From the NCBI GenBank assembly GCA_965218425.1, contig OZ244621.1, forward strand, positions 2,240,001 through 2,304,000: a stretch of DNA of 64,000 bases, written 5' to 3'. The stretch comes from an uncultured Candidatus Binatia bacterium (GTDB lineage: Bacteria; Desulfobacterota; Binatia; UBA9968; CAXXLF01). Position 1 is the first letter of the stretch; the number at the start of each line of letters is the position of its first letter. Of the stretch, positions 42,001-45,000 are shown piece by piece. The position numbers were made by a program.

Positions 42001-45000
42001 TCCTCCATGCACAATAGCTATAACCTATACAACGTCGTTCCTACCCCAGGAGTTCCCGAAATATTACCCCTTTACGGCGGCAAATCGATATCATAGCTCT
42101 TGGATGATCCGGGTGATTGTGGTAAGGGGTCTCTTCGTTCCGTGTCTTGTCCTAGAAAATATTCTGCACGGAGTCTTGCACGATGACAAGGGGAGAAAGT
42201 TTATGACCACGAAATACGATGCCATCGTTATCGGTACAGGCCAGTCGGGCCCTTCCCTGGCCGCGCGGATGGCGGGTGAAGGAATGAAAGTTGCCATCAT
42301 TGAACGCAAGTCGTTTGGTGGCACCTGCGTTAATACCGGTTGAATACCCACCAAGACCCTGGTGGCCAGTGCCCATGCCGCTCACATTGCAAGGCGTGGG
42401 GCTGAATACGGGGTGATGATCGGCGGGCCGGTCACCGTGGATATGAAAAAGGTCAAGGAGCGTAAGGACAAGGCGGTGCAGCGGTCCAATCAGGGAGTGG
42501 GCAATTGGGTCAAGAACCTGAAGAACGCTAAGGTTTACGAAGACCACGGGCGGTTCGAGGGACCCCACGCGGTGCGTGTGGGAGGGGAGCTCATAGAGGC
42601 GGATAAGATTTTCATCAATGTCGGCGCGCGCGCGTCGGTAATGGACCTCCCTGGGGTAAATTACTTCACCAATTCGAGCATCATGGAGGTGGATTTTCTC
42701 CCAAAGCACCTGATCGTGGTCGGCGGAAGCTACATCGGCCTGGAGTTTGGTCAGATGTACAGACGCTTCGGCAGCGAAGTGACCATCGTGGACCGTGGGC
42801 CTCGGTTGACCCAGCAGGATGATGAGGACACTTCCCTGGCGATCAAGGAGATTTTGGAAGCGGAGGGGGTGAACGTTCGGCTCGAAGCTGAATGTATTTC
42901 TGCTGCGCAAAAGGGCGATCAGATCACCGTCAATTTGGACTGCAAAACCGGAGGTAAGGAGGTAACGGGTACCCACCTGCTGCTCGCCATCGGACGGCGT
43001 CCCAACACGGACGACCTGGGCATAGATAAAGCAGGCCTCGAAGTGGATCGGCGGGGGTACATCAAGGTGGACGATCGGCTTCAGACCAACGTGCCTGGAG
43101 TTTGGGCCATTGGGGACTGCAATGGCAAGGGAGCCTTCACCCACACCTCGTATAACGACTATGAAATTGTTGCGGCCAATCTGTTCGACGACGACCCACG
43201 CCGGGTCAGCGACCGAATTTTAACCTATGGGATGTTTATCGATCCGCCCCTCGGACGCGCGGGAATGATCGAAGATGCAGTGAAAAAATCAGGCCGCAAA
43301 GCGTTGATAGCAAAGAGGCCCATGACTCGTGTGGCGCGCGCCGTGGAGAAAGGCGAGACACAGGGATTTATGAAGATCTTGGTGGATGCCGAAACCAAAG
43401 AGATCCTCGGGGCCGCCGTCCTTGGTGTTGGTGGCGATGAAATCATTCATTCCATCCTGGATGTGATGTACGCCAAGGCGCCCTGCACGGTTATTCAGCG
43501 GGCTGTCCACGCCCACCCAACGGTGTCGGAGCTGATACCCACCATGCTGGGGGACCTGAAGCCGCTGGAGTGATGTGTCCTTCGCTTGGGCAAATGAGCA
43601 TCAGGGCAAGCCCATCAATTATGAACGGCTAATCTGGACCCTTCCGCGGCTGGTACAGTGCTTGTACGTGTTTCGACCAGTTCGCAAGATGGATGATGCA
43701 TGCCCCGGGCTGAGACCCGGGAAGTCTTCATTCTCGCTTTTTCCCGCCTTGTTTAACCTCTTCCACCATGTAGCATCGTAGGTATTGGTGAAGGTATTTT
43801 CTACCCCGGGAAAGTCTGGAGCGAATGGTTCCCAAGGGGCATGAGAGCACCTCCGAGGCCTCTGCATATGAAAGCTCTCCCATGTCCACCAGTACAATGG
43901 GCGCTCTAAATTCTTCAGGGATTTTGGTCAGGGCCTCATTGACCTTGACGCTCAATTCTTTAGTGTAGACATTGTCTTCCGGCCCTGGCTCCGGTCCCGG
44001 AAGCGTCTCCCAATAATCTAAGCCCTCTTCGTCCCAGAGACCCCGTCCTTCCACGGCCGCCCATCTTCTCTTCCTGTGGTGGTGATCGAGAAAAAAGTTA
44101 TAGAGGATCCGACTCAGCCACGCCTTCAGGTTGGTTCCAGGGGTGAACTGTTCGAATGAATCAAGGGCACGTAGATAGGCTTCTTGGACAAGGTCTTGAG
44201 CTTCCTGAGGGTCCCTCGATAGGTGTAGGGCAACTCGATAAAGGTGATCGAGGTGTTGCAGCGCCTCTTGGGCGAAGCGCTCTCTCCCGGCTTTGGTGTT
44301 TTTGCCCCTCCGTATCACGCGGCCATTCTAGCTGAGGGGATGGCCCGTGTCTACTTACTTAAATAGTGGTTCAGGTTTCGAGTCCACCACACCCGTGGGC
44401 CGATTCCCTCTGGGGAAGAGTTCCCACGGGCTCTACGACGTGGTGGGAAACACCTTTAGAGTGGACCTCCACGCCCGGAGAATAGTTTTGAAGGGATGTT
44501 CCTGGGATGATTTACCCGGCGCCTGTGGGGCGGCGCAAAAAACCGGAGGCGGCGGGAAGTGGGTTTATCCGGGTTGAAGTGGGTTGATGCGGGCTGACGG
44601 AACGAAGATGTTGATTTTGACTTGCCGCGAGATTGCTGATATTACCGAAATCAATCTGGTCGTATCGAAGAGGCGTCTATGCAGAGCTTCGCTGAGAAAA
44701 TAAGACAAAGCGGCGACAGCTTCCTCAAGCGCAAGGTGGAAACCCTGCAGGTTAACATGGGGAAGTACTGCAACCAGGCATGCCTGCACTGTCACGTGGA
44801 GGCGGGACCCACCCGGAAGGAAATCATGACTCTGGAAACGGTAGAGTCGGTGCTCCGTTTCCTCGAGAAGTCCGATGTGCCCACAGTGGACATCACGGGG
44901 GGCGCGCCGGAGCTCAACCCGCATTTCGACTACCTCGTGGAGCGCAGCGTCCAGCTTGGCCGCCACGTGATGGACCGATGCAATCTCACCGTCATCTTTG

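Follow-up and report, generated by a model that had tools for sequence, protein, structure and literature searches.

The main finding of this study is that two adjacent gene calls in the 64,000-nucleotide stretch of DNA analysed here (the window) very probably form one gene, encoding a homodimeric FAD-dependent and NAD(P)H-linked class-I disulfide reductase of the PRK06370/NF004992 group in which UGA47 is decoded as selenocysteine (Sec) by SelB and tRNA-Sec. The sequence data support an intact gene for a class-I pyridine-nucleotide-disulfide oxidoreductase, with Sec encoded by UGA in place of the second Cys of the CxxxxC motif, because purifying selection acts on both sides of the TGA, the genome has Sec machinery, the TGA recurs with intact frames, and synonymous change past the codon is suppressed in Sec forms only. 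This Sec form is widespread, is cut in two by gene callers and does not figure in selenoprotein catalogues; it represents a selenoprotein group missed by current catalogues within one of the best-studied enzyme families.

Gene structure and catalytic parts

A single frame spans 42104-43573 and its sole internal stop is a TGA, which confirms the claim of the genome-wide survey's note that the gene calls g02241 and g02242 share one frame. That they encode one protein read through the TGA is also supported, with its size corrected from 489 residues and U80 to 456 residues and U47, since the proposed start at 42104 has to be abandoned in favour of 42203 (see the table below). The 33 codons in 42104-42202 have diverged from those of the same-genus genome (12 of 33 residues differ, with only four synonymous differences, compared with 9% for the gene proper) and this stretch holds a stop in 27 of 43 homologous loci. 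Moreover, the NCBIfam NF004992 alignment begins at residue 1 of the product of ATG 42203, and a Shine-Dalgarno sequence, GGGGAGAAAG, lies directly upstream of that ATG. The gene terminates with a TGA of its own (43571-43573) that does act as a stop, which means that the genome as a whole has not reassigned TGA.

Features of the reductase locus and its neighbours (positions in the window)
Feature	Position	Strand	Basis or remark
DUF3179 gene, itself with an in-frame TGA (W-U-P-L-C)	40110..41153	-	conserved partner of the sigma/anti-sigma pair
zf-HC2 anti-sigma factor gene, neighbour	41167..42012	-	outside any conserved unit with the reductase
Intergenic region of 190 bp that separates the divergent anti-sigma and reductase genes	42013..42202	.	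highly conserved with G001
CDS of the predicted Sec flavoprotein disulfide reductase	42203..43573	+	456 aa; NF004992 and Pfam matches; start from homologue comparison
GTGQSG, N-terminal FAD-binding glycine motif (GxGxxG), residues 11-16	42233..42250	+	sequence, Pfam
Cys42 (TGC), first (interchange) Cys of the redox pair	42326..42328	+	sequence
In-frame TGA, codon 47, predicted Sec; second Cys position of CxxxxC	42341..42343	+	frame, homologue alignment
Long irregular hairpin, best candidate Sec insertion element, +15..+74 past the U of UGA	42355..42414	+	-29.6 kcal/mol; outside bSECIS rules
NAD(P)H-binding Rossmann domain, Pfam Pyr_redox, residues 169-242	42707..42928	+	Pfam
HPTVSE, His438 and Glu443, His-Glu catalytic dyad in the dimerisation domain	43514..43531	+	sequence, alignment
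ECF sigma factor gene, neighbour	43728..44318	-	abuts the anti-sigma gene in G003 and G454

The product matches NF004992 (PRK06370.1-4) with 775.3 bits at a cut-off of 629, under the bare name "FAD-containing oxidoreductase" that the survey had found, and stays below the cut-off of the sister model NF004990 (783 bits against 842); Pfam finds Pyr_redox_2 (8e-62) and Pyr_redox_dim (2e-21). It has the features that define class-I flavoprotein disulfide reductases, namely a GxGxxG FAD fold, a CxxxxC pair—with U for the second Cys, in the context GGTCVNTG-U-IPTK—and a dimerisation domain with its dyad. The glycine motif lies upstream of the TGA and is consequently missing from the 403-residue gene call. 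C42-VNTG-U47 aligns with CLNVGC, and HPTVSE with HPHPTLSE, of a solved E3 enzyme. This alignment places the predicted Sec at the flavin-side (charge-transfer) position rather than the interchange position, the naming of the two Cys and the role of the His-Glu dyad being those given in PMC8358701. The two in-genome paralogues reported to have Cys at the site indeed both carry CxNxGC (30% and 28% identity).

Distribution of the TGA form

As had been claimed, the same-genus genome G001 keeps the TGA (91% amino acid identity), and so do homologues close to the 43% identity cited by the survey, in G009, G037 and G473 (44-45%). The codon was read directly in the first two—GGTCVNYG-U-TPTK in G009 and GGACVNYG-U-TPTK in G037—and assigned in G473 from the stop count of the homologue table ("1 TGA") rather than from the codon itself. 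The survey's Cys orthologues are equally real: at 63-75% identity, 23 of the 26 loci read use TGC and the other 3 TGT. Within the order, TGA is found in only 3 of about 46 orthologue rows covering the codon, most of which use Cys; the third Sec orthologue, in G454 (75% identity), belongs to another family of the order. At least seven further Sec orthologues, all with open frames, occur in SAR324, Acidobacteriota, Planctomycetota and metagenomes. In the tree, Sec forms are scattered among Cys forms, which takes 5-6 changes, at least three of them forced by well-supported branches.

The substitution extends well beyond these orthologues. A pattern scan of species genomes detected 82 loci with TGA at this codon, and among the 80 that were fetched, 64 are intact (at least 400 open codons past the TGA), 11 run off the contig and 5 have a second stop, a proportion of intact frames that excludes chance. 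A scan of metagenomes yielded at least 120 such loci; 80 were fetched, of which 35 are complete (at least 415 codons past the TGA) and 36 run off, while a second stop interrupts the other 9. No match with TGA at the first Cys of the motif came up in the pattern scan of 123 genomes. The TGA reductase loci from the genome scan group into four subfamilies, the other CxxxxU groups being a Nitrospirota NF004947-like group, a Rokubacteria type, a Bacillota type and a 44%-identical CVNYG-U-TPTK clade. Like our protein, these groups have a predicted Sec at this very codon of the motif, and their genomes encode SelB. They differ from it in sequence (25-45% identity) and in that three of them have rule-conforming insertion signals with a spacing of 17 or 26. 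Hairpins of this kind follow the UGA in 23 of 27 Nitrospirota-type loci (19 with a GGC loop and spacing 26), in 28 of 32 of the Rokubacteria type (mostly a GGU loop, spacing 17) and in 2 of 5 of the Bacillota type. CxxxxU reductases are common in soil and groundwater lineages, including Nitrospirota, Rokubacteria/Methylomirabilota, Binatia-like bacteria and SAR324. The class-I CxxxxU type is nevertheless absent from the whole of Table 1 of PMC13188914, a 2026 catalogue, and from the literature searched, so what the survey had said of that table is true of the complete version.

The genome has the machinery for Sec insertion: selB (413 bits), tRNA-Sec (76.5 bits) and selD (378 bits), the last itself of the Sec type with its own TGA. 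SelB scores above the cut-off in 12 of 12 tested bacterial genomes carrying the TGA form, and below it in two archaeal genomes with the TGA, where the frames break 32 and 39 codons past it. In the FdhA family, no selenoprotein was found in the genome (best match 101 bits, no stops). A 156-nt contig from an RNA library covers the TGA unchanged, which at a depth of 2.5 and with possible DNA carry-over is weak evidence; the DNA-type runs X1 and X3 also contain the stretch, X3 possibly as its source and hence not as independent support.

Insertion signal

The published bSECIS rules call for a loop 3-9 nt long that has G within its initial two positions, a spacing of 16-37 nt and a free energy of at most -7.5 kcal/mol, and no hairpin of this description was found downstream of UGA47; according to the bSECIS review, some bSECIS elements fall outside the model. 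The long hairpin beginning 15 nt past the UGA is the probable recoding signal. Its core (42367-42404) folds at -19.3 kcal/mol alone and the 41-nt window +26..+66 at -20.8 kcal/mol, and its apical loop, UCACAUU, 38 nt past the UGA, contains no G in this genome. A small CUGG-UGG-CCAG hairpin with a spacing of 19 reaches only -2.1 kcal/mol (ensemble probability about 0). We rejected a further hairpin at +8..+25 (loop AGACCC, -8.1 kcal/mol), which has a spacing of only 10 nt, is encoded by PTKTLVA and reaches a pairing probability of 0.01 in an 80-nt context. In the same genome, GrdA, GrdB and SelD each have a neat hairpin whose loop starts with G, and the DUF3179 hairpin is bulged, with G second in its loop (CGUGU), and was returned by no automated scan. 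The strict hairpin scanner is conservative, having missed the SelD and DUF3179 positive controls. An Rfam scan of the whole window gave no family at gathering score, and there is no tRNA in the window.

The survey's caution that the hairpin is largely present in Cys forms turned out to be even more justified than stated. Sec forms (n=13) and Cys forms (n=25) do not differ in mean minimum free energy (-17.1 and -19.5 kcal/mol, p=0.17), and in 22 of 26 Cys genes the hairpin falls in the top tenth of windows by stability. Synonymous-codon shuffles retain it, with z -0.76 in this gene, where 21% of shuffles fold as well. Within the orthologue clade, rule-conforming hairpins are not enriched in Sec forms (5 of 13, vs. 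8 of 25 Cys forms). These folding comparisons indicate that the stable hairpin comes about as a side effect of the peptide sequence. In our proposal, the conserved peptide ASAHAAHIARRGA would yield the hairpin nearly whatever codons are used, and Sec forms would add a constraint at the RNA level.

Synonymous sites give the evidence for this constraint. Over codons +1..+25, three independent Sec pairs show 7 synonymous differences in 64 codons vs. 332/941 elsewhere (p=2.8e-5), and eight Cys pairs show 58/174 vs. 943/2896 (p=0.87); upstream codons of the Sec pairs are unremarkable (18/59, p=0.67). This comparison covers pairs in ungapped register with equal site offsets, which set aside L016/L244, L017/L244, L016/L192 and L244/L192, where indels left about 120 identical-residue codons, as well as L250/L261, whose site offsets differ. 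Such Sec-specific synonymous constraint points to an RNA element. In the 44% clade, synonymous diversity shows only a shallow dip around the site and further dips elsewhere.

Alternative readings of the TGA

The best-surviving alternative, which we nonetheless consider unlikely, is that UGA47 is read by a standard near-cognate tRNA (Trp, Cys or Arg), giving low levels of an ordinary enzyme by leakage. While the lack of a rule-conforming SECIS in this gene and a hairpin that is not specific to Sec forms would agree with it, the TGA coincides exactly with a catalytic Cys, the classic Sec/Cys pair, and every tested bacterial carrier has SelB. In addition, canonical SECIS hairpins are present in sister subfamilies that carry this substitution, and the synonymous sites past the UGA are constrained in Sec forms only. 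Judging from the mechanism in PMC8358701, the enzyme would also be expected to lose its activity with Trp or Arg in the charge-transfer position.

That the TGA is a nonsense mutation in a recent pseudogene common to two species—the worry raised in the survey's note—is highly improbable and can be dropped in view of the selection and recurrence data. Cys in most orthologues of the order, the missing canonical SECIS and the public gene calls of close relatives, all shortened to 378-403 residues (43 sequences in 3 clusters), would fit a broken gene. However, dN/dS between this genome (G000) and G001 is 0.095 for codons 1-46 (dS 0.42) and 0.083 for codons 48-456 (dS 0.56), the G454 orthologue and at least seven others have open frames, and 64 of 80 TGA loci in genomes are intact. 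The substitution rates argue against a pseudogene and for purifying selection both upstream and downstream of the TGA. Scarcely credible is a translation that ends at the TGA and an independent functional protein of 403 residues from GTG 42362, which is exactly what gene callers predict here and in relatives, but which would lack the FAD-binding GxGxxG and both redox residues, does not fit the equal purifying selection on the 46 upstream codons, and disagrees with full-length Cys homologues that align from residue 1. The practical consequence of Sec decoding, our preferred reading, is that public gene calls drop the FAD-binding N terminus and leave dead-looking fragments in metabolic reconstructions.

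Neighbourhood and proposed function

The link to an ECF sigma/anti-sigma pair proposed by the survey is not conserved. The sigma and anti-sigma genes are contiguous in G003 and G454, and the reductase gene is therefore a genus-specific insertion between them; a search around 42013-43727 revealed neither insertion scars nor flanking repeats. The 190-bp intergenic region presumably holds both promoters, although inspection by eye recognised no ECF-type promoter upstream of the reductase and a promoter consensus scan gave only sigma-70-like matches at about the chance rate. Gene neighbourhoods of the orthologues are not conserved either. Ferritin-like genes adjoin 3 of 33 loci (one also with SOD, one with a catalase-related gene), pirin adjoins two loci, and G6PD lies immediately upstream of one Sec form. 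Our best guess is a stress-protective reductase.

As for the chemistry, Sec47 would replace the charge-transfer Cys against the flavin, so that the oxidised enzyme would hold a Cys42-Sec47 selenenylsulfide instead of a disulfide. NAD(P)H would reduce FAD, the reduced flavin would attack the selenium and open the Se-S bond, the Cys42 thiol would attack the substrate, and the Sec47 selenolate would resolve the mixed disulfide, with His438'/Glu443' as the acid-base pair. A broader and more tentative idea, to which we give somewhat less than even chances, is that the flavin-side Cys-to-Sec swap is a recurrent one-base switch in at least four class-I subfamilies, and that the peptide-forced hairpin is a latent or relic SECIS in this one. 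On this view, the mRNA for the conserved helix past the redox motif forms the gene's most stable hairpin with any choice of codons, a TGC-to-TGA change would be decodable at once and at little cost in this subfamily, and the product would gain a flavin-adjacent selenolate/selenenylsulfide centre. No enzymological study of a centre of this kind came up, although no search was directed at it. The gene in any case lends itself to studying how UGA is recoded when no textbook SECIS is present, and to asking if a peptide-forced hairpin can take that role.

Comparison with known systems

The closest known relatives, the uncharacterised Cys-type NF004992/PRK06370.1-4 orthologues, are up to 78% identical over the full length and have the same domains, a CVNTGC-IPTK motif and the His-Glu dyad, the difference being TGC or TGT where this gene has TGA. 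The best solved relatives are Thermus E3 (E=1e-75) and the 6kgy chain (5e-71), which we take to be E. coli RclA. Our protein shares motifs and the dyad with the following enzymes, but falls below the curated cut-off of each: dihydrolipoyl dehydrogenase (TIGR01350, 352.9 bits against 408.8), RclA (NF040477, 323.7 against 740), hypothiocyanous acid reductase (NF041853, 302.3 against 650), MerA (TIGR02053, 309.6 against 454.45, with no C-terminal Cys pair and no metal-binding domain) and glutathione reductase (291 against 480).

Mammalian-type thioredoxin reductase has the same fold and an N-terminal CVNVGC-type centre at the FAD, and it uses Sec. There, however, Sec resides in a C-terminal GCUG tail that is fed by an all-Cys N-terminal centre, whereas our protein, which ends in ...GDLKPLE, lacks a C-terminal redox tail and has its predicted Sec inside the N-terminal centre at the flavin; its score against TIGR01438, 145 bits, is far under the cut-off of 476. 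Unlike the C-terminal Sec of thioredoxin reductase, selenium at the charge-transfer position by the FAD would be a natural experiment on the part that Se plays in flavin-thiol chemistry. Table 1 of PMC13188914 does list a flavoprotein of the same superfamily, of another class, in which a flavin-adjacent redox Cys is replaced by Sec. That protein has a single redox Cys and no CxxxxC pair, and ours reaches 79 bits against a cut-off of 579 for it.

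Results

The reductase is open in a single frame from 42104 to 43573, with the in-frame TGA as its sole internal stop. The genome-wide survey's note had placed the start at 42104, giving 489 aa with the TGA as codon 80. We place it instead at ATG 42203, because GGGGAGAAAG precedes this ATG, position 1 of the NCBIfam profile NF004992 coincides with residue 1 of the resulting product, the 33 codons upstream are divergent (12 of 33 residues changed relative to the same-genus genome G001, with only 4 synonymous changes), and a stop interrupts the same stretch in 27 of 43 homologous loci. 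With this start the protein has 456 aa, and the TGA becomes codon 47. NF004992 is matched with 775 bits against a cut-off of 629, and its name, 'FAD-containing oxidoreductase', is, as the survey had said, the only one that NCBIfam provides; the profiles for dihydrolipoyl dehydrogenase, RclA, MerA, hypothiocyanous acid reductase, glutathione reductase and mycothione reductase score below cut-off, and no NCBIfam model specific to these Sec forms matched. The Pfam domains are Pyr_redox_2, Pyr_redox and Pyr_redox_dim. The 403-aa product of the gene caller would lack both the FAD-binding GxGxxG and the two redox residues, and public close relatives (43 sequences in 3 clusters) have all been called as fragments of 378-403 aa.

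Positions of the reductase and associated features (window coordinates unless a contig is named)
Feature	Position	Strand	Remark
zf-HC2 anti-sigma gene	41167-42012	-	flanks reductase
Reductase gene	42203-43573	+	flavoprotein disulfide reductase
Redox motif GGTC42VNTG-U47-IPTK	42341-42343 (TGA)	+	Sec47 at TGA
ECF sigma gene	43728-44318	-	flanks reductase
Radical SAM / DUF3641 gene	44679-45641	+	adjoins sigma gene
GrdB-like gene	46381-47685	-	Sec context ILTST-U-GTSTRSG, not UxxC; SECIS control
Sec trait locus	G000:C1:1307623-1311984 (~1.308-1.312 Mb)		selD, selB and tRNA-Sec adjoining, in the genome under study (G000)

The gene is not a pseudogene. Its product shares 91% aa identity (87% nt) with that of G001, and dN/dS is 0.095 over the 46 codons before the TGA (dS 0.42) and 0.083 over the 409 codons after it (dS 0.56). 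Since the gene itself terminates at a TGA, this codon has not been reassigned in the organism. The genome encodes selB (413 bits against a cut-off of 242), tRNA-Sec (76.5 bits) and selD (378 bits, with a TGA of its own inside), and SelB is above cut-off in 12 of 12 tested bacterial genomes with TGA forms, one of which, the source of locus L089, is G001 itself. Among relatives with the Cys form, SelB passes its cut-off in G003, G007 and G027 but not in G021; the choice between Cys and Sec thus does not track loss of the Sec trait. In one metatranscriptome run, a 156-nt contig (depth 2.5) covers 42278-42433 with the TGA unchanged, and another run yielded 217 nt at the 3' end of the gene, although both may be DNA carry-over. 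In X1, a DNA-type sequencing run, a 69-nt contig of depth 34 (window 42313-42374) has TGC for TGA together with 6 further differences; it comes from a co-resident relative with the Cys form and is not an allele of this organism.

Within the order, a homologue search of 123 genomes gave matches at 1e-100 or better in 48; one genome, G464 (locus L246), is counted solely in the tallies of this search and excluded from all other analyses. Looking for TGA in place of the first motif Cys gave no case in 123 genomes of the order. The survey's observations on relatives were borne out. Orthologues of 63-100% identity carry TGA in G000, G001 and a further genome, G454, while the remaining rows covering the codon have no stop; reading the codon in 26 of these loci gave 23 TGC and 3 TGT (locus L260 returned no motif hit). 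The 43%-identical homologue with TGA that had been reported belongs to a 44-45% identical clade with the motif CVNYG-U-TPTK, in which G009, G037 and G473 have TGA, the codon itself having been read in the first two. Across the phylum at large, a sample of 401 genomes contains just 3 whose best match reaches 1e-100.

Scanning all species genomes with the degenerate pattern GG-x-C-[VLI]-N-x-G-TGA-x-P-x-K gave 82 loci. Among the 80 fetched, 64 stay open for 400 codons or more between the TGA and a proper stop, 11 run off the contig and 5 have a second stop. Two of the five come from archaea; they break off after just 32 and 39 open codons and lie in genomes that both lack a SelB above cut-off. 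Grouped at 45% identity, the TGA loci form four groups: Rokubacteria/Methylomirabilota (32 loci, C[IV]NRGUIPKK), Nitrospirota (25 loci, NF004947-like), this protein's clade with the 44% clade (13 loci under 8 phylum labels, CVNTGUIPTK and CVNYGUTPTK) and Bacillota (5 loci, CLNWGUMPKK). A narrower pattern found at least 120 loci in metagenomes; the 80 fetched comprise 70 of the CVNYG-U-TPTK clade, 9 of this protein's clade and 1 spurious hit. By reading frame, 35 are complete, with 415 or more codons following the TGA, 36 are cut off by the contig end and 9 are interrupted by a further stop. The CVNYG-U-TPTK clade (L022, L023, L064 and about 70 metagenome loci within L122-L200) is abundant in soil metagenomes, and six of its metagenome loci (L175, L193, L194, L122, L135 and L147) have a second in-frame stop 106-239 codons past the Sec codon.

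A quick IQ-TREE phylogeny was computed from 79 rows: 12 Sec and 62 Cys forms of this clade, with 5 Sec forms of the 44% clade as outgroup. It left out four partial sequences, the identical duplicates L089, L070 and L201, and L246 and L260; listed homologues (P0007-P0122) were thinned to every third and had to have at least 445 aa and the Cys motif, which left 36 in the tree. Sec forms are dispersed, requiring 5-6 changes, at least 3 of them forced by well-supported branches. G000 and G001 pair with full support inside the Cys forms, and since Sec forms make up both the outgroup and the basal lineages, repeated gain of Sec and ancestral Sec with repeated loss are both possible.

The insertion signal is the weak point of the selenoprotein reading. 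Scanning 3' of the reductase UGA against the published bSECIS rules found no conforming hairpin. The other selenoprotein genes of this genome have short hairpins, with apical loop GGA at 18 nt (GrdB-like), GGA at 23 nt (GrdA), GUU at 33 nt (SelD) and CGUGU at 20 nt (DUF3179), the last read by hand from the fold and returned by no automated scan. The reductase has a long hairpin at +15 to +74 (-29.6 kcal/mol), whose core at +27 to +64 (pair probabilities 0.98-0.99, loop UCACAUU 38 nt past the UGA) is the gene's most stable 41-nt window (-20.8 against a mean of -9.0 kcal/mol). As the survey had cautioned, the hairpin is largely present in Cys forms: the same window belongs to the top tenth by stability in 22 of 26 Cys genes and in 6 of 9 Sec genes, and mean energies do not differ (Sec -17.1, n=13; Cys -19.5, n=25; p=0.17). 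Synonymous-codon shuffles retain it (z=-0.76 for this gene; on average, z is -0.26 in Sec and -0.66 in Cys genes). Being neither specific to Sec nor lost on shuffling, it is thus a product of the peptide ASAHAAHIARRGA combined with a GC-rich codon choice. In the sister subfamilies, the UGA is followed by a rule-conforming hairpin in 23/27 sequences of Nitrospirota type, 28/32 of Rokubacteria type and 2/5 of Bacillota type, and three basal members of this protein's clade form an 8-bp hairpin (loop GCUAG, spacing 21). In the CVNYG-U-TPTK clade, the 66 nt after the UGA are almost invariant and include CUUGCCC-GGC-GGGCAAG, a 7-bp hairpin with its loop at a distance of 49 nt, beyond the published spacing.

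A separate test, on synonymous change, is positive for an RNA-level constraint in Sec forms. Synonymous differences between three independent close Sec pairs (G000/G001, L051/L050 and L129/L157) number 7/64 in codons +1 to +25 against 332/941 in the rest of the gene (p=2.8e-5); for eight Cys pairs, the same codons give 58/174 against 943/2896 (p=0.87). In the Sec pairs, codons -25 to -1 give 18/59 against 321/946 (p=0.67) and codons +26 to +50 give 13/64 against 326/941 (p=0.02). G000 and G001 are identical from the TGA to +36 and from +49 to +78, and their four differences all map near the hairpin apex. In L184, a further close relative, C38 is replaced by U, which preserves the pairing with G54. 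These details agree with the synonymous-site result, as do the hairpins of the sister subfamilies and of the three basal members.

At window 42013-43727 the reductase splits, in opposite orientation, an ECF sigma/zf-HC2 anti-sigma/DUF3179-Sec operon, an order common to G001 only. G003 (L270, 1492-3575) has its orthologues of sigma, anti-sigma and DUF3179-Sec in one unbroken run and its Cys-type reductase elsewhere, and sigma abuts anti-sigma in G454 (L271, 683-2097), neither with a reductase between, which implies that in this genus the reductase was inserted into the operon together with 190 bp on its upstream and 154 bp on its downstream side. No flanking repeats or scars were found around 42013-43727. 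The Sec-type DUF3179 gene lies further along and a Grd-like operon close by; the link to the sigma/anti-sigma pair proposed by the survey does not extend beyond G001. The 190 bp upstream of the reductase (42013-42202) are conserved with G001 far above synonymous sites, as are some 40 bp ahead of the sigma gene (44319-44360), and the sigma gene is preceded by a sigma-70-like TAGACA-17-TAGAAT. Neighbours vary over 33 orthologue loci, with a ferritin-like gene in 3 (one also with SOD, one with a catalase-related gene) and pirin in 2, which is no more than a hint of a role in oxidative stress. In G454, whose Sec form is 75% identical (L070/L244, ~2513-4317 of L070), a same-strand G6PD gene directly upstream overlaps the start, suggesting an NADPH-supplying pair.

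Discussion

We consider it highly probable that this is a real selenoprotein gene. The survey's point that class-I CxxxxU is missing from Table 1 of PMC13188914 holds across all 119 families, which do include a CoA-disulfide-reductase-like UGxP form and a type III sulfide:quinone reductase. Term searches of the main texts of the deep-Sep, GOS, Olavius, Zhang 2006 and 2016 ISME papers and a 2022 review found no such enzyme; full-text literature searches for 'CxxxxU' and related phrasings returned no paper, and broader ones nothing relevant.

According to PMC8358701, canonical disulfide oxidoreductases use the leading Cys of the pair as interchange thiol and have the other, the charge-transfer Cys, in contact with FAD; a His-Glu dyad shuttles protons. 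By that description, Sec47 occupies the position of the second, charge-transfer Cys, and the catalytic cycle would pass through a selenenylsulfide. The best solved relative is Thermus E3 (1e-75), whose CLNVGC lines up with CVNTG-U of the reductase and HPHPTLSE with its HAHPTVSE.
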